DNA of 64,000 nucleotides from a virus (lineage: Duplodnaviria > Caudoviricetes). Location: the IMG/VR virus record IMGVR_UViG_3300016670_000048, positions 22,181 to 86,180 of that record, one strand, 5' to 3'. Positions 3-49,209 of the stretch are shown here, piece after piece. Each line of letters begins with the position of its first letter. Position 1 is the first letter of the stretch. The notes beneath the pieces were generated by a model. The model ran no database searches. It saw only the letters and a program-made list of their open reading frames with translations, and was not told the DNA's origin. The position numbers and the translations under genes are program-made.

Positions 3-608
3 GCAGCAGTACACGAACCGAAACTTAAATACCAATCACAGGAGAAAGAGTTTAGCGCAACTGTCTTTGTGGATGAAGAGGCTAAAGATCGACTGCTTGA
101 CGAAGTGATGGTTAACAAGTCCTTCTCTCAAGTTGGTATCACCAAAACTTCTAAGCCACCACGAAAAATTAAATTCGCATTGTCTTCGCAAGTTGAAGAA
201 GGTAAAGCAAATTATGATCTGGTAGATGGTTTGTGGGGCTTCAACATTGCCAAGCCTGAGTTTAGTAAGAAGGGGCTGCCGATGTCTGTTAACGTGATTG
301 ACGCAGAAGGTAATGCATTCACTGAAAACGTGGGTAATGGTTCTGTCGTTAATCTGAAGCTGTTTGGTTATAAGAATCAGGACGGTCAACTTACTGTTAC
401 ATTGGATACTGTTCAAGTGATTGAGCACGTAGCTTATGAAGGTAAAGGTTCGTCTGATTCGGTTGATGATGATGTCTTGGGTGTTAGTTATAAGGTGAAG
501 AAAACTGAGGCTAAGCCTGCTGAAAAAGAAGAGGAAGCTCCAGCACCAAAGGCTAAAGCTGCTCCAGTAGAACTGGATGAAGATGAGGAAAGTCTGCTCC
601 CGTTCTGA
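3..608 (+). CDS. ssDNA-binding protein (T7 gp2.5-like), 5' end outside window
   Basis: Frame is open from nt 3. Acidic C-terminal tail ends in aromatic LLPF. Lies in replication gene context. Confidence 0.65.
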   Translation, partial: AAVHEPKLKYQSQEKEFSATVFVDEEAKDRLLDEVMVNKSFSQVGITKTSKPPRKIKFALSSQVEEGKANYDLVDGLWGFNIAKPEFSKKGLPMSVNVIDAEGNAFTENVGNGSVVNLKLFGYKNQDGQLTVTLDTVQVIEHVAYEGKGSSDSVDDDVLGVSYKVKKTEAKPAEKEEEAPAPKAKAAPVELDEDEESLLPF

Positions 609-34744: not shown

Positions 34745-35788
34745 TTAAGTCGAAGAAATCAGTTTAACCAGCACTTGAGGCTGAGTTGCGAAGTACAGAG
34801 GCGAAGTCTCAACTTGCATTTCATGGAATTCATCTTTAGGATCGGTGAACTCATATGCAAACATTTCAACGCCCGGACCATTAGCACCCGACAGTTTGTT
34901 GCTTGGACCGTAGTAACCACGGAACAGATCATTTACAACTGGGATAACGTGGCCAGTGTCGGTAGCAACAGCTACTTCAGTGGTGTCGTTAGGCAGTTTG
35001 AAGATGTGATCGTAGGTGATGAAAGTTACACCTTTGTAGGTGAACTGATCAACCGAACCCCAAGCCATGAACTGGTTGGTGCTATTACGGTTGATTTCAA
35101 CTTGGGAAGCGTAGTACAGATAAGCTTGACGAATCTGTGGGTGGCTAACCAGTTTATCAAAGAACGAACCATCAACAACAACACGAATACCGCCACCAAT
35201 GGTGGAACCAGTTTTCAGGTTGGTTTGCAGATAGCGCTTCAGTTGCGAGATTTTAGCGTTAACATCAGTAGCAGCATCACCAAGGTCAAAGTCAATCACT
35301 TGCTGAGTAACACCAAACTCGGTGAACATGTCTGCAATTACAGCACCGTCGGGGGTCTTCATAATCCCCTTAACAGCTTGCAGCTTCATGTACTCAAGCG
35401 ATTGCTCAACTTGTGCACGCATGTCAGTCAGTTTTTGTACACGGACATTAGCCAGTTGCTCAGGAGAGTCTGGGGTGCCCGGCATACGCCAGCCTTGAAT
35501 ATCTTCTGGGGTGATATAGTCGCTATGCTTGAAGTAAGCCAGTGGCAGCGAGAAGGTTTGTACCTGACGGTCATTACCTTTGGTAGTCTCACGACTACGA
35601 CGAGATACTTGTGGCAGCAGGGTGGTGTCATTCATGCTCTTATCGAACACGATTGCAGTTTGAGTAGTACCTTGGGTACGGAACAGGCCCATACCGCCAA
35701 TCAAACCAGCTTGGTTATCAAGGTTATTAATTTCTTGGGTCCAGTCTACAAGCTGGAAGCCATTACCATACGAGCGGGTAGTTGCCAT
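34745..35788 (-). CDS. major capsid protein (HK97 fold, gpE-like)
   Basis: Position after scaffold and decoration genes; EYMKLQAVKG, QVETSPL. Confidence 0.92.
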   Translation of the reverse strand: MATTRSYGNGFQLVDWTQEINNLDNQAGLIGGMGLFRTQGTTQTAIVFDKSMNDTTLLPQVSRRSRETTKGNDRQVQTFSLPLAYFKHSDYITPEDIQGWRMPGTPDSPEQLANVRVQKLTDMRAQVEQSLEYMKLQAVKGIMKTPDGAVIADMFTEFGVTQQVIDFDLGDAATDVNAKISQLKRYLQTNLKTGSTIGGGIRVVVDGSFFDKLVSHPQIRQAYLYYASQVEINRNSTNQFMAWGSVDQFTYKGVTFITYDHIFKLPNDTTEVAVATDTGHVIPVVNDLFRGYYGPSNKLSGANGPGVEMFAYEFTDPKDEFHEMQVETSPLYFATQPQVLVKLISST

Positions 35789-35801
35789 TATTTACTGTTC
35801 C

Positions 35802-36230
35802 TTACGCGAATTGATTTGGTTGTTCGATGAGCTTGATACCCACAGCTTCCATTTGGGCATAAACAGCAGCCAGCTCAGGAGCGGTATCAACGGAAGCACC
35901 AAATACGAGATTTGCCTTACCTACACCAGCAGGGCCACGGAACAGAACAACTACGTTAGTATCAGTGGTTGCAGCAATAGTTTGTTTGTTGTCGCCTTTA
36001 GGTTCGCCAATATAAATACCAGCAAAGTTTTGGCTACCGTCAGAGGCAGTGGCTTCCAAGATTTTGTACTTACCAGTAGCAGTAACTTTGCCGAGAACGG
36101 TGCCGATTACATAAGTTTTGATTGCAGCTTCGTTAGCAACAACTACGTCACGGCAGTGACCGTATTCAGGGTGGTCTTCATATTGCAGAACTGCGCCGAG
36201 GCGAGTAGAGCGGGTTTCGATTGCAGCCAT
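35802..36230 (-). CDS. head decoration protein
   Basis: GTVLGKVTATGKY motif. Confidence 0.85.
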   Translation of the reverse strand: MAAIETRSTRLGAVLQYEDHPEYGHCRDVVVANEAAIKTYVIGTVLGKVTATGKYKILEATASDGSQNFAGIYIGEPKGDNKQTIAATTDTNVVVLFRGPAGVGKANLVFGASVDTAPELAAVYAQMEAVGIKLIEQPNQFA

Positions 36231-36270
36231 ATTATTTGAAACTCCTAGCTAGGATAATTGATAAACAATA

Positions 36271-37230
36271 TTATTGTTTTTTACTTTTATTAATAAGTTC
36301 ACCAACAAGAGCTAGACCTGCGTCTTCTTGCTTCTTAGGCTCACCTTCACCACTAACACCTTTCTCTTTGAAAAGGTCAGAGTTTGCTTCTTCTTCGGAT
36401 TTAGCACCCAAAGCTTTCAACATTACTTCAAATGCTTCATCGCCCAAAGCTTCGGTTGCTTTGTACAGCGATTCACCATCTTCTTTGTTGAGACTTTTAA
36501 CAGTTGCAATTTTAGCTTTACGAGCTTTGGCAACTACTTCCATCTTTTCTTTCTTAAACTCTTCAACTTCACCAAGAGCTTTAGTCAGTTCAGTCTCCAA
36601 TTCACCAATCTTCGACTTGAGAATTGCTTCAGCAGCATCAACTGCTTTCTTGATTTCTTGTTCCAAAATTTCTACCTCAGACTTTTTAAGTTCTTGTGCT
36701 TTAAACATCTCAACAAGATGTTTTTTAGTACCATCATTTTGAAGGGCTTTAGTTACAAGACTATAGATTCCTTCTTCAAGTTTATCTTCCGCATCTTCAG
36801 ACAGAAGCATTTCCCCAGTCGCCGCTACGTAAGAAATTTCACGGGTCATAGGTGGGGCCAAGTCACCTAAAGTAACTTTTCCATCTACAAGAGAGTAATC
36901 TACCGAAAATAGACCACCCTCACTACAGAAGAGAACAATGGAATCATTATAGTCTTCTACATACAGCCAATGATCGTCATCCCCGAAAGCCTCACGTACT
37001 GCACTGGAAAGTGCATCACTGATTTTGGATGCGTACATTGATTTATTGATAAGTCCTTTATCAAGCCCAAGAGCTTCAAGAGCCTTTGTAATTTCTTCAG
37101 TAGCTTCTACATCACTTTTCATGAGCAGAGATACGTTACGACCGTTAGCAGCGCCACCTTGTAGCTCGTTATGAGTGAGTGCAAGATGAGGACGCTTACT
37201 ATCGTCTTTTGTCTTAATGATCAAAGTCAT
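36271..37230 (-). CDS. scaffolding protein
   Basis: Glu/Lys-rich coiled coil upstream of capsid genes. Confidence 0.75.
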   Translation of the reverse strand: MTLIIKTKDDSKRPHLALTHNELQGGAANGRNVSLLMKSDVEATEEITKALEALGLDKGLINKSMYASKISDALSSAVREAFGDDDHWLYVEDYNDSIVLFCSEGGLFSVDYSLVDGKVTLGDLAPPMTREISYVAATGEMLLSEDAEDKLEEGIYSLVTKALQNDGTKKHLVEMFKAQELKKSEVEILEQEIKKAVDAAEAILKSKIGELETELTKALGEVEEFKKEKMEVVAKARKAKIATVKSLNKEDGESLYKATEALGDEAFEVMLKALGAKSEEEANSDLFKEKGVSGEGEPKKQEDAGLALVGELINKSKKQ

Positions 37231-37748
37231 TCTTCACCACCATCAAATGTGACATTGGTGATTTCACCAGTCTTTTGGTTGATCTTTCCTTTACCACCAA
37301 TACTTACACCACCAATTACGCCAGCTTTCTTGAGATTCCAAAGATCCTCGCTGTTGTATTTAATCTTGGCAACCCAAGTACCAGCTTTAATAACTTCGCC
37401 AGTTTGAACAACCTTTACATCCAATTCCTTTTGAACCCAAGTAGATTCAATAGTGAATGCGTCAGTAGATTCAAGATGGAAGAGGTTCGAATTAACAACC
37501 CCTTTCTCAAGATTCTGATTGAAGTTCTCACAAGCTTTTTCAATAGTCTCTTCAGACATCCATTCCCCATGAGCATCCTTCACTAGAGGCTCGTAGACAA
37601 CTTCATAAGACACCATCTCTTCATTGACTTCTTCAACTACAGGAGTGTTATTAGTGGCACCAAAGTATTTCTCAATGAACTCAGCGAATCCTTCAAGAAT
37701 ACCCTTCTTCAGCTCTGCTGAGCCTTCTTCAATTTTATCTGTCATCAA
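37227..37748 (-). CDS. XkdF-like putative prohead protease-domain protein
   Basis: YEPLVKDAHGEW, NLFH, GTWV, GVSIGG. Confidence 0.75.
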   Translation of the reverse strand: MMTDKIEEGSAELKKGILEGFAEFIEKYFGATNNTPVVEEVNEEMVSYEVVYEPLVKDAHGEWMSEETIEKACENFNQNLEKGVVNSNLFHLESTDAFTIESTWVQKELDVKVVQTGEVIKAGTWVAKIKYNSEDLWNLKKAGVIGGVSIGGKGKINQKTGEITNVTFDGGEE

Positions 37749-39220
37749 GTATTCTCATTATTTCCGACTGAGCTATCATCGCCACCGATTGGACTTTTAC
37801 TTGTCCCTTCACCCGCTGTTTGCATACCTTCTGCTGCACCTGAATCATATCCAGTCAGTTGAGGACGAAGATCATCAATACTAACTTCAGAATCGAACTT
37901 AGTTGGCAACCCTACCCACTCAGCAACTTGGTTAATATTTTCAGGAGTAACAGCAATTAAGCCAACCGATGCAGCACGTTGTAAATACTTGGAAAGGACA
38001 TCCAAATCTTCTTCTTTAATTTGATCATATTCGAACTTAGGGAGACGGTCTAGTGACCAACCATTGAGTCCGAACAACTGAGGAATCAAATCAGAGTTGA
38101 GGGGATCTTGAATTTCTTTCAGATAATTCTCAACAGCCATATGCACAATGGACGACTTAGAATCCGCTAGATTGAAAGATCCACCTTTAGAGTTACCCAT
38201 CTGCAAGATATCGGCAAACAATGCTTGAAGAATCTTGTTATCCCAACGAATGATTGCTTTGTCAGTGTCATATTGACTCGCATTAGGTGGGCCAATCAGT
38301 TCAAAATCAAACAGGCTGTTATTCTGATCATCATAGAACTTAGGAAGAATAATACAGGCTTGTTCATTGTTCTGAAGATTACGGCCAATATTCTTAAAAG
38401 CTTCCACTGTAGCTTTTTGGTCAGAAGTAGAATCTTCTTTCAAATAATCGGCGGGCAATTCAAACTTAGGAATGCCACCAAGACCACGAGTGATACCGAC
38501 AGCCTCAGATTCTTCAATCTGTTTACGATAACGCCAAGCCTTGTAAACTTTAGAGAGGGGGGAGCGACCTTGCGGATTATCTCGGCTTACATCAGTTCGG
38601 AACAGAAGGAACTTCTTACGTTCAATATCAATCTGTCCACCATAATCTTTGCTATTAGCTAGACGATATCCATCAACTAGAAAGCCTGTATCTTGAACAA
38701 CACCGAGGAGATCACGCCCATCATCACTGAATAGCCAACGGTAAACAGTGGTCTGAGAACGAGTGGCAAGTTTAGCAATACCAACCAAGCCATCATCGTA
38801 TTTAGAACCAGTACCTTTCCGGCGGCGGCGATAGACCTTCTCTTGAATAGCATATCCGTATGTGAACATGCTAGTCACTTCCTTGATAAAGGAGAACCAA
38901 CTATGATCCATGTCATCCATGCACTGTTGCAAGAACTGGACTTTCTTCAAATCATCTTCAGTAGGATCAACAGGAGGAACCACTTTCCAATTAACCCGAC
39001 TAATCATCATTGAGAACAGTGAAAGAGCAGAAGCAATAGTTGCATCCTCTCCCATTTCTTGGTATGTTCTATTGGAGCGAGGCCACTGTAGATCCTTTCG
39101 CATCTCCTCAAGAATAATACCGTCAAATTCTCTCAAGCCCAACCAGCCCGTTTCACCCATCTTAATGCGGAGGGCTGGATTATCACCGGCAGAGAGATTT
39201 AAATTGTCATTTTCTGCCAT
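37745..39220 (-). CDS. portal protein
   Basis: Follows TerL; NPQGRSPL, GGSFNLA. Confidence 0.9.
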   Translation of the reverse strand: MAENDNLNLSAGDNPALRIKMGETGWLGLREFDGIILEEMRKDLQWPRSNRTYQEMGEDATIASALSLFSMMISRVNWKVVPPVDPTEDDLKKVQFLQQCMDDMDHSWFSFIKEVTSMFTYGYAIQEKVYRRRRKGTGSKYDDGLVGIAKLATRSQTTVYRWLFSDDGRDLLGVVQDTGFLVDGYRLANSKDYGGQIDIERKKFLLFRTDVSRDNPQGRSPLSKVYKAWRYRKQIEESEAVGITRGLGGIPKFELPADYLKEDSTSDQKATVEAFKNIGRNLQNNEQACIILPKFYDDQNNSLFDFELIGPPNASQYDTDKAIIRWDNKILQALFADILQMGNSKGGSFNLADSKSSIVHMAVENYLKEIQDPLNSDLIPQLFGLNGWSLDRLPKFEYDQIKEEDLDVLSKYLQRAASVGLIAVTPENINQVAEWVGLPTKFDSEVSIDDLRPQLTGYDSGAAEGMQTAGEGTSKSPIGGDDSSVGNNENT

Positions 39221-39245
39221 GTTATTCCTTTGTAAGATAGGCTAT

Positions 39246-40754
39246 TTAAAAGCTGAATTCATTTGATTTTGTCATGCTGGGCATGGAGAAGGTTGGGACT
39301 TGGAATTTCTGTGCTAGTTGCATATAACCAAGAGAACAACAATCGACCATATCGTCGTGGCCCAGTTCGCCGCTTTTCCGGGTCCCATCAAAATTCTCTA
39401 ACTCCTTGTAAAAGAAATCGTTAGAGTTTGTGATGTTGTTCCAAAGGTCGTTTGCACAGTTGGTTACGATGGAAACAACACCTAATTCAACAGAAGCTGC
39501 GAAAGGTCTGAACGAATCCAACTTACCAGCAGGAGAGCGCCTAACTTTAGCAACAATTCCCATTTCATTAAGAGACTTGGCAATCATACTAGTTGCTGCT
39601 TTAGCTGCGGCGTTCGGATCTTCAGGAAGAATAACTTCTACAGCCCTACCATCTCTTTCCGAGTTCTCAACGATGTGTTTTACCCAATTACCAAAAGTAA
39701 TTCGTGTCCTTGTAATATCAAGGATTACATAATCACCGGTCTTGAGTTTACCCATCTTCACAGAAGCAAAGTAGTCGGGAGACCTGTTTTGATCATGGGG
39801 AAGAGTGCCTGCAAAATCGTAAGCTCGAACAATTCTTACGAAGTCTGTATGAGGTGGGGGTGCAGTCAATTCTATTAAATCTGCCCGGTCAAAGTACGAC
39901 GAATTATCGGGCCTTGCGAACCAATTGCCCCATCTAAGCCTTTCACAATCTAGCTTAGGAAGAGCTTCCAAATTTTTCTTGTAGCTGGGATTGGACAAAT
40001 TTAACGGTGGGTTATCTTCAATTGTACCAAAGAGACCTTGAAAGCTAATTGGTTCTATTTGGTCTTTATGATCAGCAGGTAGATCTGGATTGCCGTACTT
40101 TTCAATCATCTCTTCTCTGGTATCTCCCCAGACAAGATCACCATTGATTCGGAGCAAAAATCTGATTACACCATTTTTCTCTGGGTCAGGTCGACCGGCC
40201 AATGGGTGATGTTCGGGGTAGAGCCACCACATGGCATACTTAAGCACCCAACTCGCGTTGTCTGGGTTACACGACCACCACATCGAGTGTATATTATCTG
40301 CATCAGAACGGAGACGTGACCAGAGCCACCACAATTGTTCTTCATTTTCTGCGTGAGTTACCTCATCATAGAAAATGTTTGAAATTTGAATACCCTGATA
40401 TTTCTTAGCTGCGTTATCATTCTCGTAGTGAGAAAAGCTAACTTCCGCCCCGCTAGAAAAGACCAGTTTTTGATCTTTAAGACGAATCTTTAAATTGGGA
40501 TCAAACTGGCTATAAAGTTTCACAGCTTCTTGGAACAAACCACCAGAAGCCATGATTGCACTAGAGTTCTTTCGAATACAATAAGCTTTATAATTTGGAT
40601 CGTGGGCAAAGCGGAGGTGACGCATTAATCCTACGTAACTCTTTGAACTTCCTGCTGCGCCGCCCACCAAAATAATCTGGGCGTCGGAGTTGAGGTATTT
40701 TTGCTGGAACTCCGACGCTGGGCCTATAACAACTTCATCTGGTTTTAGTTTCAA
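39246..40754 (-). CDS. terminase large subunit
   Basis: Walker A GGAAGSSKS, Walker B IFYDE, CNPD, HDDMVD nuclease motif. Confidence 0.95.
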   Translation of the reverse strand: MKLKPDEVVIGPASEFQQKYLNSDAQIILVGGAAGSSKSYVGLMRHLRFAHDPNYKAYCIRKNSSAIMASGGLFQEAVKLYSQFDPNLKIRLKDQKLVFSSGAEVSFSHYENDNAAKKYQGIQISNIFYDEVTHAENEEQLWWLWSRLRSDADNIHSMWWSCNPDNASWVLKYAMWWLYPEHHPLAGRPDPEKNGVIRFLLRINGDLVWGDTREEMIEKYGNPDLPADHKDQIEPISFQGLFGTIEDNPPLNLSNPSYKKNLEALPKLDCERLRWGNWFARPDNSSYFDRADLIELTAPPPHTDFVRIVRAYDFAGTLPHDQNRSPDYFASVKMGKLKTGDYVILDITRTRITFGNWVKHIVENSERDGRAVEVILPEDPNAAAKAATSMIAKSLNEMGIVAKVRRSPAGKLDSFRPFAASVELGVVSIVTNCANDLWNNITNSNDFFYKELENFDGTRKSGELGHDDMVDCCSLGYMQLAQKFQVPTFSMPSMTKSNEFSF

Positions 40755-41645
40755 TTAACTTCCCTCACTATGAAATTCCACCCACTCCTTATCGTAATGA
40801 GGAATCCAATTTTCTCGGAACATTTCAACTAATTTATCAAAATGAAATCTAGGGTATTCTACATTTTCTAACTTAGAACAAATAGTGGCAAAAGAATAGG
40901 CTTTTGGCTTATCGTTCTCAATCCAGATATTGTAATAATTTGCGGCCATTGCCCATACCCTTGCTCGGGCTGGTCTTGCTAAGGCTGCACTTTTCTGCCA
41001 AGGTTTTAAGGATTTCTGGTACTCAGACAATTGAGCTTTTTGCTCTTCTGAAATAACCTTACCTATCTGAGCCAACCTAGATTTTTCAACAGCTTCTGGC
41101 GATCTTTTCTTACCTCGAAAAGCATCTCCAATCTTCTTTCTGGCAGACTCTGGAACTGTCCAACCGGAAGCAATTAGTTCTTGTCGCTTTGCACTTATCT
41201 TACTTTTAGTCTCTTCAGAAACTTTATGACCCATCATTTTCTGCCTACCTTTTTCGATAGACTCTGTTGTTCTTTTATGACCAGTTAGTGTTTGACGAAT
41301 CTTCTCTTTTGTTTCTTCAGAGACAACCCTATTACTCATAAACTCTGCTTTAGCAATCTTAGCTTTCTCAACTTCACGAGAAGTAAGAATACCTTTATGA
41401 GAATTTACAGTGCGTGCATAAGCCCACATCAAACTATAGTTATCAGGATTAGCTTTCCACAAAAGACGATGTGCAATCACATGCTCTCTAGGGGTAAACA
41501 GAACAAAGTTGGAATTTTTATCAGAACCACCGAGACATTTGGGGATAATGTGGTGTTTTTCAAAATAACCATCTAAGACTTTCTTATCTAAACCTCTAGC
41601 AACACACTTATCAACTAGAGCATTATAAATTTTCTGATAATTCAA
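40755..41645 (-). CDS. HNH homing endonuclease with NUMOD3 repeats
   Basis: EKHHIIPKCLGGSD...N...REHVIAHRLL; SEETKxKI repeats. Confidence 0.92.
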   Translation of the reverse strand: MNYQKIYNALVDKCVARGLDKKVLDGYFEKHHIIPKCLGGSDKNSNFVLFTPREHVIAHRLLWKANPDNYSLMWAYARTVNSHKGILTSREVEKAKIAKAEFMSNRVVSEETKEKIRQTLTGHKRTTESIEKGRQKMMGHKVSEETKSKISAKRQELIASGWTVPESARKKIGDAFRGKKRSPEAVEKSRLAQIGKVISEEQKAQLSEYQKSLKPWQKSAALARPARARVWAMAANYYNIWIENDKPKAYSFATICSKLENVEYPRFHFDKLVEMFRENWIPHYDKEWVEFHSEGS

Positions 41646-41647
41646 AC

Positions 41648-42289
41648 TTAAACACTCCCAAACTGAATCTTCATCCGTTCGGGAATTGCTTGCACTACCA
41701 ATTCTTTATAGCGATTTCGATCACCTTCGAACAAGAAGTTTTCTTCAATTGTCCCAGTGATATGTTTTACAGAATCACAGAAGCCAACAACACGACCATT
41801 AACTTTATCCAAAAGATTAGCTTTATTAGCCCAAGAGTCATCTTTCTCAAGATTCTCAATTGAGTCGATAACAACCATCTGCTTGGCTCGGAACAAATGA
41901 GCTAGTACAAAGTCTTTTGAAATGTTGGCATCGAACAGCATCAAGTCACGAGCAAGACCTTGGGTCTTTGCAATACAGTTATCACCACATGCAATAAACT
42001 TAATCTTTGAACCATTCCTCAATGTTGCAATTGCAGACTTTTCAGAGTAGCGAATATCTGAACCAAACATTTTTAGCATGTATTCTTTAACACTGCCAGC
42101 ACGATTAATATGAAACCATGTTGGAACTAAGAATGTCACATTGATATCTTGGTTATCAGAAGCTACTTGCCAAGCTTTCATAAGCAAGGCTGTAGTTGCA
42201 CCTGCTCCGGGCTCTGCTGTAATAACCGTGAGCTTCTCGTTTGATTCAAGAAGCTCTTTCTGCATCTTTGTTGCAAATACAACTGACAT
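41648..42289 (-). CDS. degenerate terminase-ATPase paralog
   Basis: Colinear with TerL N-terminal domain but Walker A is GAGAT and Walker B is LFDA. Confidence 0.7.
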   Translation of the reverse strand: MSVVFATKMQKELLESNEKLTVITAEPGAGATTALLMKAWQVASDNQDINVTFLVPTWFHINRAGSVKEYMLKMFGSDIRYSEKSAIATLRNGSKIKFIACGDNCIAKTQGLARDLMLFDANISKDFVLAHLFRAKQMVVIDSIENLEKDDSWANKANLLDKVNGRVVGFCDSVKHITGTIEENFLFEGDRNRYKELVVQAIPERMKIQFGSV

Positions 42290-43710: not shown

Positions 43711-43787
43711 TGGTGGGTCCATCCAGACTTGAACTGGAAATCAACGAATTATGAGTTCGCTGCATTAACCAATTATGCTACAGACCC
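43711..43787 (-). tRNA. tRNA with CAT anticodon (Ile2 or elongator Met), CCA encoded
   Basis: GGGTCTG/TGGACCC acceptor, CTCATAA loop, GTTCAAG T-loop, ACCA end. G1-C72 and no GGG/CCC anticodon stem, so not an initiator. Confidence 0.93.
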
Positions 43788-44579: not shown

Positions 44580-44595
44580 GTGTTTGCGAAAATAA

Positions 44596-45576
44596 TTATA
44601 AAATTCTTATTCCTCCCATTTCAGAAAAGATATTCATAACTTGGTCTAAGTAAATAGTGTAGCAAATCTCCGACCAACCTGACTCAGAAGTATCCATTTC
44701 TAATAAACCCCTAGGGATAAGATCTTTACATTTTCTTTCCGCAGCCTTGCACTCTGCAATAGTCCCATACTCGTATATGGCAAACAGCTCATGCCTGTAC
44801 TGGGAATTATAGTTGTGTTGTATAAGTCTGTTTCTAGAGTTTTTAGATATTCCAAATTTAATAGCTACTGGAACCTGTTCATCATACATCAGATTAATAT
44901 ATGATTCTGTTTGCCTATGAAATGCACAAGAACAACCAACTTGACCCCTCTGCAAGTGTCCTTGCTGGCTTTCATATACATCTCCACACCTATCGCAAGT
45001 TATTTGCCAATAAACACACTGACCTCTCTTAGTTGTCCTGTCTATTCGTTTAAACTTGGTTTCGCTTCCAAAAGAACCTGACTCCATAAAAGATTTAATC
45101 ATAATACTTTCTGGTTTAATATTAAACTTTCTAGCAGCAGCCATTCCCTTGATATCTCTACAATTGATACATCCACGCTCTGCACTCCAAAGCATTGATA
45201 ACTCAAGTGACCAAGTATGGTTACACTTTGTACAGGATAAATTACAACGGGAGCTGGAGCCTGTATAGGGTTGGATTATGCCACAAAACCTATGTCCTGC
45301 ATTTTTAGCGGATCTTTGACTTTTAACTATAGCTTGTTGTTCTGTCCAAATAACTTTTCCTGCACAACCACAAAACAATGCACCCTTTAAGTAATTTTGT
45401 TTGTCTGTATAAAATAAAGAATCACCAAATAATTCTGTGTCAAAGGAACAAACATTGCACTTGAATATATAATCTGTTCTTTTATTATTTCTAACTGTAC
45501 CTATGTATCTGTATCTACCTGAATCTTGTAATTTATAGTCTTTCTTTATGTCTTGAATTGATCCACTGTAAATCAT
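44596..45576 (-). CDS. putative homing endonuclease, zinc-ribbon repeat family
   Basis: FKCNVC, CTKC...W, CDRCG repeats; C-terminal AIKFGISKNSRNRL. Confidence 0.72.
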   Translation of the reverse strand: MIYSGSIQDIKKDYKLQDSGRYRYIGTVRNNKRTDYIFKCNVCSFDTELFGDSLFYTDKQNYLKGALFCGCAGKVIWTEQQAIVKSQRSAKNAGHRFCGIIQPYTGSSSRCNLSCTKCNHTWSLELSMLWSAERGCINCRDIKGMAAARKFNIKPESIMIKSFMESGSFGSETKFKRIDRTTKRGQCVYWQITCDRCGDVYESQQGHLQRGQVGCSCAFHRQTESYINLMYDEQVPVAIKFGISKNSRNRLIQHNYNSQYRHELFAIYEYGTIAECKAAERKCKDLIPRGLLEMDTSESGWSEICYTIYLDQVMNIFSEMGGIRIL

Positions 45577-45624
45577 CTTACTCTCTTTCTTGTATTAAAT
45601 ATTATTTATATTGTATTAGATTTA

Positions 45625-46078
45625 CATTTCAACTGAGTTCAGATAGGAACTTCAGATAAAGAAATACCTTACCCAGCCATACAAAGCCAACGCTCTGCCT
45701 AAGACCGAGTAACGTACCTTATCTGATAGCTCTATCTGCCTCTGTCCGTTATTAGCAATTAAATTGCCTTTCAACTTGAGACGAGATTTAGTGAGTGAAT
45801 AAATCACTCTATGGTCTACACGGACAAACGTAGCCACCTTCAGGACAATGACACTAATAACGCATTGTCTCAACACATTGCATATCGCACGACTTTATTA
45901 GAATCGTTAGGGAGGTAGTGTTTTTCAGTTTACCTTGCAGACTGTCCCATCACTCACAGTAGTCCGCTTGTTTAAGAAAGAAGCTGCCATCTCACACAGG
46001 AAGCGTTAGCCACCATGTTAACCGACCTTCAATCCGATCCTTAATCCAATGTGCTTTCGCTTAGAGTTTTAAGGAGTG
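45625..46078 (-). ncRNA. large structured non-coding RNA, unknown class (~450 nt)
   Basis: Two upstream promoters, no credible ORF, more than ten helices with G-U pairs favouring the minus strand. Confidence 0.6.
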
Positions 46079-46083
46079 CATCA

Positions 46084-46111
46084 ATTATACAGAATTATAG
46101 AAGTAGAGCAA
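46084..46111 (-). promoter_or_regulatory. sigma70-like promoter for the large RNA
   Basis: TTGCTC-16-TATAAT. Confidence 0.65.
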
Positions 46112-46152
46112 GAGATTTATTTAACTCTTTAATTTTACTAGCTATTCATCTT

Positions 46153-46181
46153 ATACTAACATGGATTTTCAAATAAAGCAA
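46153..46181 (-). promoter_or_regulatory. second, upstream sigma70-like promoter
   Basis: TTGCTT-17-TAGTAT. Confidence 0.5.
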
Positions 46182-46270
46182 GCCCTTTCGTCTTTTTTTG
46201 ATCCATCATCACCAAAATAATCCCTATTCCAAATCAACCTAACCAAACCTAAATTATTTTAGCAATCCGC

Positions 46271-46299
46271 TTGCTTTCCACAAATCTGTAGCGTAGAAT
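46271..46299 (+). promoter_or_regulatory. divergent sigma70-like promoter for accessory genes
   Basis: TTGCTT-17-TAGAAT. Confidence 0.7.
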
Positions 46300-46338
46300 T
46301 GGTTCATCAAATAGAGAAACACCTAAAGGAGAGAAGAA

Positions 46339-49209
46339 ATGAAAACATACGAACTGAAAATTGAACCTTGCCACACAGATAACGAGAAGATCTATCGCAC
46401 CAAAGGTCACCATAGTGCAGACGATTTCCTTAAGGCTTTGAAAGAATATGGTGTAGATATTACCTATTACACAGTTCCTGAACAGATTTATATTAAGACT
46501 ACTCCCGCACATAAAGATTCGTGGTGCTCTGCCCACTATAACATCGTAGACAAGTCTGTTCGTGGAGCTTATCCTTGCACTTATGTTAGGGAATATGGGG
46601 AGGTCTATAATGAAGATTGATTATGTTATGGTGTTTCTTGTTGGTGTTTGTTTTGGAGCAATTCTTCAATATTGGTCTTAGGAGGTCTAAACTATGAAAG
46701 ATCCAGTCAAGCATTGCAGCCTGTACAAAGAGGAGGGCTGTACCCATGTAGATGGGATGTTGTGTGATTTTGAAACTTGTTCAATGCGAATTGGTTATGA
46801 TAATAAATATATTGCACTGCTGAAACTTGTGACAGATCACAACCAAGCATGCGATTCTGAGTGTAGTGCTAACGCAAAGTATTGTATTGATTATTTGGCT
46901 GTTGGGCGTAGATGCTCAGGTTGTCCTAAGTATTACAAGGTAGATATTTAATCATGCGCTACTCAAAAGGTCGTTGGACAGCTAGCTACCGGGACACTTA
47001 TAGCCTCGATATGACCCTACCCCCAATCATCTACGCCGGACTATCTAAATTCCACTCAGTGTTGGAACAAAAGAACCGCGAAGGGAAGTGTCTAGGCGTT
47101 CCTAACGAATACTGTGCAAACCCCGATGTAGACGTAACAGACCAAGAAATACAAAATTGGCTAGACGACATCAAGAAGATGATGTATGCTTTCGAGAACA
47201 AAGAGCCTGATATGAGCTTGTATAATTTCAAGCTTACGATGGTGCCTGTGGAATGTGAGCTTGCAAAATCTTATGAAGGTAAATTCGGCAAGTCATACAC
47301 AATCGAGTGTGATAATCTGGAAGAGAAAGCTAGATATTATGTGGATTGTGATGAGCATGAGAGGTTGGTGCAAGAGGGGCTTGATTTGTTCAGTCAGAAA
47401 TACCGCTCGTTGTGGTGGTAAATTAATAGGAGAAGACGAATGAGGGTCGTAATAGATAAGAGCTTTCTGCTTGAAGATGCGAATAAAGAAGATATTGATT
47501 TTTTAAAGGGTTGCACCATCTTCCATCAAATTGAGGGTACGGGAGATGTGACAATCATTGAGCAGAAAATAGACTTGTCAGAGGACTACATGGAAGCATT
47601 TCTTGATATCGTAGACTGGGCTTGTAGAGGTACAATTACTTTGGAAAGATACGCAACAGGACGTTATGGATTGAAACTCTCATGACAATCCTCCTAGCAT
47701 GGTCCGTGTGTGCCATTTGCAGCTTTTCATTGGGCAAATCCTACATAGAAAACCTCTTCCGTCCCTTCGGAGGGCTGCCATCAGTCTGTAGACGTATCTG
47801 GCTGGAAGACCCTGAAAACACCGCCAAAGATAGACAGTCTTTGAATGAAATGCCAGATGGATTCATTGCAGCAGTCCTTTATACAATACTTCTTGTGCTG
47901 AACCTTATGTTGTGGCCACTTGTATTGTCTGTTATCATCTGGCTTAAGATATTTCCATTGGATACAGAAGAGTTGGAGGAGTATAGGGAATGATTGATCT
48001 ACCAATTACAAAATTCAGGGCATGGGCAATTGATCTTGTCTATACTGACGGCGATGAAGTTACAGCCTATTGGGATGAAGTTGCTGGTGTCTATTGCTGG
48101 AATAGTTGGAGTGTCCCTCGCAGGGGTATTCGAGAAGTAGTTATACCAGACAATACCTTTCAAAAGGGAGGAGTAAAATCTCACTCAGAAATTTATCTTG
48201 TTGAGATTACTCGAACACCTCGTATAGAAGAAACAGTTTCAGTGGAGAAGCTAGTCAAATGAAAATCCGAATCTGCCAAATGACCTACCCATCCAAGAAA
48301 CCATTCCGCGTGTTCTACGGGAAAGAAAAGCTTGCAGAGTTCTCTACAAAAGAGAGTGCTGAGGAATTTGCTAAGATTTATTTAGTGCCTCCTTATACGA
48401 TGCAGACAAATGTGTGGTATAAACGATGAATTATGAATTCTCGCATAAAGGTGCATAATTTATGAAAGTTTGTTGTAGTAATGGAAAACTATACGATTCG
48501 TTGACAGAGTTTGAACGTCTTGGTGGATGCAACAACGATCATTGCTTTGGTCCTATTGAAGAATATGTCTATTTACAATTCTGTGGGACATTCCACACAA
48601 ATGAATGTACAAGCTCAGATGATTTAGCTAAACTACTAAGACAACCTAATTGGGAAGACTGGATTGCCTCGCAGATTGAAGAGGAAGGGTTTGACAAGTA
48701 TAAAGAGTGGTATGCTAGGATGCTTCAACGTGGAGCTATCTGCGACGAGATGATTGAAGCTCATAATATAATGTTTATGGAGGAATGATGAAACCACAAG
48801 AGATTGACAAACTAGTTCAACTTGACCCTAATGGTATGAACGGAACTATCATGCAAACTCTTCTTCACCCTGAAGTGAATGAGATTCCTTTTGCAGATGC
48901 TTTGTATCATTTGTTGAGCAAGACTCTTGAAGAACGAGCTTATTATGAGAAAATGTATCAGAAGTTCTTTAATGTGCTTACAGCGAATGGTTTGATGACT
49001 AATGAATTGCTTGGATTGGAGGAGAAATGAAAATTACAGACGAACAAAAGAAAGCAATCTATACAGCTTATATGAAATGGGCAACTCAGCTATTTGACGA
49101 CCTTGAGGATAAGAGTGTGATTACGGCTGAGGAGCTGGTCTATAAGGTGTTGAGTTTGGTGGAATCATCTCTGACAGAACAGGAATTAGATGAAGAATAT
49201 GTGAAGTAA
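46339..49209 (+). other. cluster of about 9 small hypothetical ORFs (46339, 46694, 46954, 47440, 47682, 47990, 48462, 48785, 49027)
   Basis: Contiguous ORFs with RBSs; 47682..47993 has TM segments. Confidence 0.7.

Follow-up and report, generated by a model that had tools for sequence, protein, structure and literature searches.

A candidate new class of large structured RNA in a narrow group of mosaic phages

The divergent gap and its neighbours

The stretch of DNA considered here, which we call the window, is 64,000 nt long and forms part of an 86-kb IMG/VR phage record. Within it, a 762-nt gap between divergent genes (45577-46338) is the site of a promoter followed by a putative non-coding RNA (ncRNA), which together make up a sharply bounded conserved block that runs on the minus strand from 46111 to about 45631. 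On one side of the gap lies a 326-aa ORF (44596-45576, minus strand), the first of the minus-strand genes that run to the packaging and structural genes, and on the other side are plus-strand genes of early type. An 18-mer from the core of the ncRNA recovered one further IMG/VR phage (locus L140, in genome G006) and three metagenome contigs (L144, L150 and L151), and these four together with the window form the set of five alleles used throughout (alignments A3 and A4). Beyond the block, the flanks are unrelated in all of the homologs.

The 326-aa ORF encodes a homing-like endonuclease of the T5orf172/CapR type (phrog_681, 2e-42; PF21817) and belongs to a minus-strand cassette (44587-45594) that is swapped as a unit: in a DNA contig from public run X10, exactly this interval is exchanged for 679 other letters, and 45595-46238 is retained with eight other letters and two gaps in 644 nt. 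In L140 and L144, HNH endonucleases stand in place of the T5orf172 cassette downstream of the ncRNA, and every allele with a visible 3' flank has a nuclease-type or unknown cassette behind it. As the downstream nuclease varies while the ncRNA stays, and as the relative L007 has the T5orf172 nuclease family without any ncRNA, the RNA appears to be independent of the nuclease. On the upstream side, three homologs have a divergent gene for an HTH_37 regulator 140-200 nt from the -35 element, and assemblies from public runs branch again at 46238-46343. Cassette exchange on one side and this branching on the other make the block a conserved island between two variable regions; neither target-site duplications nor terminal inverted repeats were found at its borders.

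Two more features lie downstream on the same strand as the ncRNA. The first is a possible second promoter for the cassette (45605-45632; TTGAAA, 16-nt spacer, TATAAA), which can be read in an AT-rich stretch and is kept in L140 and not in L144. The second is a gene for tRNA-Met (CAT; 43711-43787), found by both ARAGORN and Rfam 1.85 kb downstream of the ncRNA, and in G006 a tRNA-Thr gene lies at an equal distance from L140, again on the same strand.

Some observations on the neighbouring regions may be recorded here. In the window, the full terL gene comes after an ORF for an N-terminal TerL fragment (41648-42289) and a phrog_655 homing endonuclease (40755-41645), all within 39246-42289. The tblastn matches between the window terminase and the terL genes of L006, L007, L008, L009, L011 and L013-L015 are interrupted, at residues ~34 and ~121-125, by clean gaps of 218-256 nt, which could be small introns. 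The equivalent divergent gap in L015 (2983-3551), which is without the ncRNA, holds about five copies of a palindromic ATAGGAC...GTCC motif that are probably operators of an early/late switch.

Promoter, extent and fold of the putative RNA

The upstream border of the block is marked exactly by a -35 element, TTGCTC (46106-46111, minus strand; TTGATC in all four homologs), as blastn matches to L140, L144, L150 and L151 have their border at 46111/46112. After a 16-nt spacer comes an extended -10 element, TG-TATAAT (46084-46091, minus strand), which is kept in four of the five sequences (the hexamer is TATACT in L151, and the TG is missing in L150), so that the consensus over the alleles reads TTGMTC, 16-nt spacer, TG-TATAAT. 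A consensus promoter scan missed this site because its -35 element matches at three of six positions in the window. The initial annotation, made from the sequence of the window by itself, had proposed two tandem sigma70-like promoters, of which the second is the conserved one; the upstream TATAAT is not conserved.

From the spacing of these elements, transcription is predicted to start at about 46077, and from there to the end of conservation in L144 the putative ncRNA measures about 447 nt (45631-46077, minus strand). Similarity ends at ~45591 in L140 and at ~45631 in L144, and L150 and L151 are cut by contig ends. Because all of the helices described below read on the minus strand, the putative RNA would run from about 46078 down to about 45625, toward the 326-aa ORF. 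A scan for canonical terminators (an sRNA-type GC-rich hairpin followed by a U run) found none, so the RNA may simply be the front of a longer mRNA; the 3' strand of its terminal arm is U-rich (UAUUUCUUUAUCU) but is itself paired.

A coding reading of the region can be set aside, as the homologs differ by indels of 1, 2, 4 and 24 nt and the start of a 35-codon plus-strand ORF, the only plus-strand start codon present, is lost in L140; the earlier view that there is no credible ORF here is therefore borne out. Inside the core lies an invariant 14-codon ORF (MVANASCVRWQLLS; 45972-46016, minus strand) with AAGG about 10 nt before its AUG, for which a substitution-pattern test is impossible since nothing in the core varies.

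The fold is specific to one strand. The 454-nt minus strand has a minimum free energy of -141.4 kcal/mol, compared with -118.7 +/- 6.3 kcal/mol for dinucleotide shuffles (z -3.59), and none of 100 shuffles was as good, whereas the plus strand of the same 454 nt has a z of only -0.93. Together with the covariation described next and the non-coding status of the region, this bears out the putative ~450-nt ncRNA of the initial annotation. By domain, the signal comes from the long terminal arm (MFE -38.3 on the minus strand, z -10.3), the 5' hairpin (z -3.0) and the 3' domain (z -3.0), with z -1.7 for helix H3. The arm reaches only z -3.1 on the plus strand, which is explained by its many G-U pairs. 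The middle part (RNA nt 110-237) is no better than shuffles (z -0.3) and has several near-isoenergetic alternatives.

Among the five sequences, 99.5% of cells are paired in the RNAalifold structure, and in five helices a total of nine pairs have both bases changed while remaining paired. None of 500 shuffles reached nine double changes, and slid controls gave 0-1. The helices listed in the initial annotation are all present and all on the minus strand, and covariation backs four of them: UCCUUAA/UUAAGGA with its GAAA tip, GAGUGA/UCACUC, GCAAU/AUUGC and the tip of an arm of ~27 bp. The others (GCGGA/UCUGC, AGGUA/UACCU, ACGAU/GUCGU, GACAAUG/CAUUGUC and AGUUC/GAACU) are invariant and do not rise above chance.

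Read from its 5' end, the RNA would begin, about 3 nt after the predicted start, with the hairpin P1 (46038-46075, minus strand), in which two pairs show double changes. P1 has a GAAA tetraloop at 46058-46055, and its distal 24 nt are cleanly deleted in L144 in such a way that a hairpin remains. Its stem varies among the alleles (UCCUUAA/UUAAGGA, UCUUUAUUUC/GAAAUAAAGA and UCCUUAUUUC/GAGGUAAGGA) and reaches 10 bp in L140 and L151. P1 is followed by a sequence-invariant core of 196 nt (45837-46032, minus strand) with a single substitution among the five sequences, and with invariant sequence in only five alleles no covariation is possible there. The description of the RNA as "ornate" is for this reason earned in part: its middle is invariant and without demonstrated secondary structure. 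Within the core, the 7-nt loops of two predicted adjacent hairpins (45895-45901 and 45854-45860, minus strand) are perfectly complementary (CUAAUAA/UUAUUAG) with all positions invariant, and could form a kissing interaction or an alternative 14-bp helix.

The sequence GGUGGCUA occurs twice, as had been noticed, once in the core (46014-46007) and once at 45838-45831. The second copy lies in helix H11 (GGUGGCUACG/UGUAGACCAU, loop UUUGUCCG; 45811-45837, minus strand), where it pairs with UAGACCA, and in L140 a U:A pair of this helix has become C:G. H11 was missed by the initial annotation, which proposed instead a long-range helix UGUCCGU/ACGGACA. The two complementary strands are indeed present, but they are invariant and located in the loop of H11, so that a pseudoknot would result if both helices are real. 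A tRNA-like cloverleaf for the UGUCCGU...ACGGACA domain was rejected by ARAGORN.

Two hairpins that follow appear to be replaceable as units. H12 (45793-45809, minus strand) has double changes in four of its six pairs and takes the form GAGUGA/UCACUC in the window, GGAUC-GAAA-GAUCC in L140 and AGGUAA/UUACCU in L144. H15 (45754-45768, minus strand), supported by the alignment and by covariation, is GGCAAU-UUA-AUUGCU in the window and AGCUU-AAC-AAGCU in L144, and is shortened in L140 and L150. Next comes the interrupted, G-U-rich terminal arm of 73 nt (45653-45725, minus strand), whose tip shows one double change and one change from G-U to G-C (GCAGAGC/GCUUUGU to GCAGAAC/GUUCUGU). An internal loop of this arm, UAUGG opposite UCUUAGG, resembles the 11-nt receptor for GAAA tetraloops. 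The last conserved element of the putative RNA is a small hairpin, AGUUC/GAACU (45636-45651, minus strand), invariant in the three sequences that reach that far. Of short motifs, AAGGU occurs five times compared with 0.7 expected, but the copies sit in helix strands, and a CsrA/RsmA sponge was rejected because GGA motifs are not enriched.

Distribution among phages and in public sequence data

Two k-mers from the core had L140 as their sole match in IMG/VR; blastn against GenBank phages, plasmids and E. coli genomes gave no match to the block, and a 20-mer none in GTDB genomes. In twelve relatives by terminase (63-98% aa identity) and in the complete genomes G001 and G002, no homolog of the ncRNA was found with blastn, nhmmer, tblastx or a covariance model built on the 3' domain (R1); their equivalent gaps hold other content. 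Less direct routes gave the same answer: the pattern GGTGGCTA-N(155-180)-GGTGGCTA returned more than 118 chance matches in IMG/VR and no homolog, a search with the endonuclease protein found no relatives in IMG/VR, and the HTH neighbour and its alignment led to 40 loci, none with the ncRNA. A separate protein search with the HTH neighbour gave 14 relatives. Rfam 15 cmscan, at gathering score over the window and at E <= 10 over 45300-46500, matched no ncRNA family other than tRNA, nor was there any match at the homolog loci, and ARAGORN reported only the tRNA-Met. The sequence was found in no paper in a literature search, and the motifs given in the accessible part of a 2023 catalogue of viral structured RNAs are all 29-151 nt long (PMC10690425).

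One short identity outside phages deserves mention. On the bacterial contig FLOH01000052.1 (L154:673-698), 23 nt are identical to the ncRNA (GGUGGCUAACGCUUCCUGUGUGA), immediately past the stop codon that closes a cmk-rpsA reading frame and ahead of a terminator; the remaining 11 chance matches of the 18-mer extend by only 0-2 nt. The identity may be due to chance (rough p about 0.01) or to a host 3' UTR that was captured or mimicked.

G006 is a mosaic relative of the genome to which the window belongs (G000): the terminases are 41% identical in amino acid sequence, the head module is not alignable, and the shared genes, those of the tail among them, have 65-78% nucleotide identity. No other long match between these genomes is as good as the block, with its 93.1% identity over 522 nt, and nothing else in its genome appears to be so strongly constrained. 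The swapped head/packaging module (window 34745-42289) is a clear case of mosaicism at the level of modules. Among proteins, the best conserved between G000 and G006 are a 94-aa ORF without a family (G000:C1:12504-12788, locus L203; 93.6% aa identity) and a Gp2.5-like ssDNA-binding protein (window 3-608; 96.6%), both of which are absent from G001 and G002, two relatives that lack the ncRNA.

Parts of a 2.6-kb stretch around the block occur in 20 public runs from 13 studies, five of which are recorded as RNA, with labels that include plant, soil, indoor, wastewater, food, biofilm, marine and rhizosphere. Contigs were aligned to the window from four of the listed runs, and small shares elsewhere were not used for habitat. 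A DNA contig from run X1 is collinear with the window at 97%. Metatranscriptome contigs from two studies cover the core of the putative RNA, 45765-46023 in X16 and 45777-46033 in X18, and the X18 contig is the sole piece of the 2.6-kb stretch in that run. X16 also holds pieces from upstream of the promoter, so that DNA carry-over is possible there. As the ends of these contigs and the gaps in coverage coincide with the variable hairpins, they are not read as ends of the RNA.

What the RNA might be

The most obvious comparison is to ROOL and GOLLD, large ncRNAs of phages and prophages that often lie near tRNA genes and have conserved cores with variable peripheral hairpins; both form RNA-only cages and have no known function or protein partner (PMC12286853). 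Like ROOL (RF03087) and GOLLD (RF01998), the RNA described here is phage-encoded and has a tRNA gene nearby, on the same strand in both carrier genomes. However, their covariance models found no match even at E <= 10 (45300-46500), nor any at the homolog loci, and at ~447 nt the RNA is smaller than ROOL and GOLLD (~600 to >800 nt, with GOLLD usually >800 nt). It differs, too, in being represented by five alleles from a narrow phage group and in that the secondary structure of its core is only predicted; a homo-oligomeric, RNA-only cage is a further feature of ROOL. The initial annotation had left open whether it was a member of a known family or a new class. A new class is supported by the strand-specific fold, the compensatory changes, the conservation relative to diverged flanks, the promoter of its own, the nearby tRNA gene and the presence in RNA libraries; membership in ROOL, GOLLD, OLE or HEARO is unsupported, Rfam being empty at E <= 10. 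The best reading is that of a new family, similar in kind to ROOL and GOLLD and part of neither.

Several other RNA types were considered and rejected. A tmRNA or RNase P RNA is contradicted by ARAGORN (tRNA-Met only) and by Rfam (tRNA only). A group I intron does not fit an element that starts at a promoter and has no 5' exon and no match to Rfam Intron_gpI; a conserved 3' part behind the nuclease cassette, sought as a further test, is absent in L140. On these three types the initial annotation had reached the same view. A retron msr-msd or the template RNA of a diversity-generating retroelement was excluded as PF00078 is absent from both carrier genomes.

We regard it as roughly an even prospect that the block is a separate gene for a stable, folded ncRNA of about 447 nt (minus strand, ~46077 to 45631) that is transcribed by the host and acts in trans. 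According to this proposal, the host sigma70 RNA polymerase would transcribe the RNA from the conserved extended -10 promoter and, as that promoter stands back to back with the phage early promoter region, would do so from the first minutes of infection. The RNA would consist of the 5'-end hairpin, the invariant core of ~200 nt, a 3' domain with the two replaceable hairpins, and the 73-nt terminal arm. The hairpins at the two ends might protect it, and the arm might set its 3' end, as a weak terminator by virtue of the U-rich 3' strand or as a processing site of RNase III type. In T7 early RNA, RNase III cuts bipartite stems and leaves a protective 3' hairpin; the arm, which likewise lies behind a transcript from a host-type promoter, is similar to those stems in shape only, with no similarity in sequence. 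The RNA would then work as an RNA particle, as proposed for ROOL and GOLLD, with the invariant core making sequence-specific contact to a conserved partner, which might be a protein of the host or of the phage, a different RNA, or the same RNA in further copies.

In this proposal the endonuclease genes would be passengers and the ncRNA gene their landing site, and they would help to carry it between phages in the manner of SegB. In phage T4, the homing endonuclease SegB lies beside tRNA genes, recognises conserved RNA-gene sequence, and drives its own inheritance along with that of the neighbouring RNA genes (PMC2330249). The likeness is that interchangeable T5orf172 and HNH cassettes abut an ncRNA gene common to mosaic genomes. 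The differences are that SegB is a GIY-YIG enzyme acting on a tRNA region, whereas here the nucleases are of other families, the RNA is not a tRNA, and cleavage of its gene by these nucleases is hypothetical.

The most serious rival is that the block is not a gene of its own but a cis-acting 5' leader of the leftward transcript (nuclease cassette, small ORFs, tRNA and packaging genes), controlling its read-through, processing or translation. This reading, which we think unlikely though far from negligible, is consistent with the result of the terminator scan, with the position and orientation of the ncRNA directly upstream of the leftward genes, with its identical placement in G006, ~7 kb upstream of terL, with the nuclease cassette that is each visible 3' neighbour, and with alternative pairings at the arm, where two possible partners are available to CAGAUAG, namely AUCU (45786-45783) and CUAUCUG (45646-45640). 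Such a leader might be an attenuator or antiterminator on the lines of lambda PR'-6S-tR' and Q, or might resemble the T4-type leaders by which expression of a homing endonuclease is prevented early in infection. The lambda 6S RNA and HK022 put systems belong to lambdoid temperate phages and have leaders of 70-194 nt and clear terminators. They resemble the present locus in that a strong host-type promoter heading a long late operon first makes a short ncRNA; here, however, the RNA is ~447 nt long, there is no clear terminator, no Q-like gene was identified, and the operon runs in relatives that have no such RNA. An I-TevI-type leader was rejected since the ncRNA precedes three different cassettes and its conservation ends 20-150 nt before the start codon.

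Against a leader of any kind, conservation stops 20-150 nt before the downstream ribosome site, the second promoter-like site would feed the downstream genes independently, and G001 and G002 run the same operon with no ncRNA. Known leaders such as put, lambda 6S and that of I-TevI need far less than ~450 nt, and a stretch of that length with 196 invariant nucleotides far exceeds such needs. The interchangeable downstream gene and the relatives without the block particularly disfavour an obligatory leader.

It is tempting to speculate that the RNA might act entirely by itself, either as a self-assembling, RNA-only particle, which would make it the third former of a cage or ring, or as a large ribozyme that processes the leftward transcript, in which case the invariant 200-nt core would be the catalytic centre. 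An arms race with the homing endonucleases would be played out at the replaceable hairpins, which separate the core from the nuclease gene. The pointers to such a self-acting RNA are the GAAA loop, the receptor-like UAUGG/UCUUAGG and the complementary CUAAUAA/UUAUUAG loops. These are only pointers, and we consider such an RNA rather doubtful.

A different kind of explanation would place the conservation at the level of DNA, the block being a homing site and co-conversion tract of the adjacent endonucleases with incidental hairpins, or the regulatory region of the divergent promoters, or both, homogenised by repeated gene conversion. Nuclease genes of two families at the same border, the precise replacement of the cassette, a block common to otherwise mosaic genomes and a mid-core devoid of folding signal all fit this idea, as does the precedent of SegB-like nucleases that drag neighbouring RNA genes along (PMC2330249). 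But nine double compensatory changes and the replacement of whole hairpins amount to selection on RNA pairing, the arm with its many G-U pairs has a stable fold on the minus strand alone, and the promoter is conserved along with the block. Moreover, variation is found on the nuclease side of the invariant core, in the variable hairpins, which is the reverse of a co-conversion gradient. A purely DNA-level explanation is made improbable above all by the compensatory changes and by the strand specificity of the arm.

Finally, in T7 and T4 origins and in ColE1 RNA II a transcript primes DNA synthesis, and the block could similarly be a replication origin with a structured primer transcript, its promoter firing through the RNA into an AT-rich unwinding stretch (45591-45630). 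In favour of this, the lowest point of the cumulative GC skew falls at 44-46 kb, a promoter, the RNA and a ~40-nt AT-rich stretch that is 100% conserved in L140 follow one another in that order, and a T7-type Gp2.5-like SSB is common to both carrier phages (96.6% aa identity). Even so, an origin seems very unlikely: the skew switches where gene orientation does and so carries little weight on its own, the AT-rich stretch is not conserved in L144, there are no adjoining iterons or initiator genes, and complete relatives are without the block altogether.

Large structured RNAs of unknown function are rare, and each new class so far has led to unexpected biology or architecture, as with the nanocages of ROOL and GOLLD. 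The candidate described here is compact and defined by its promoter, so that it could be expressed from a plasmid without further design, and it appears to be widespread, with near-identical copies on record under the run labels soil, plant, indoor, food, biofilm, wastewater and marine. It would also offer a clean case for understanding how homing endonucleases exploit and spread the RNA genes of phages.
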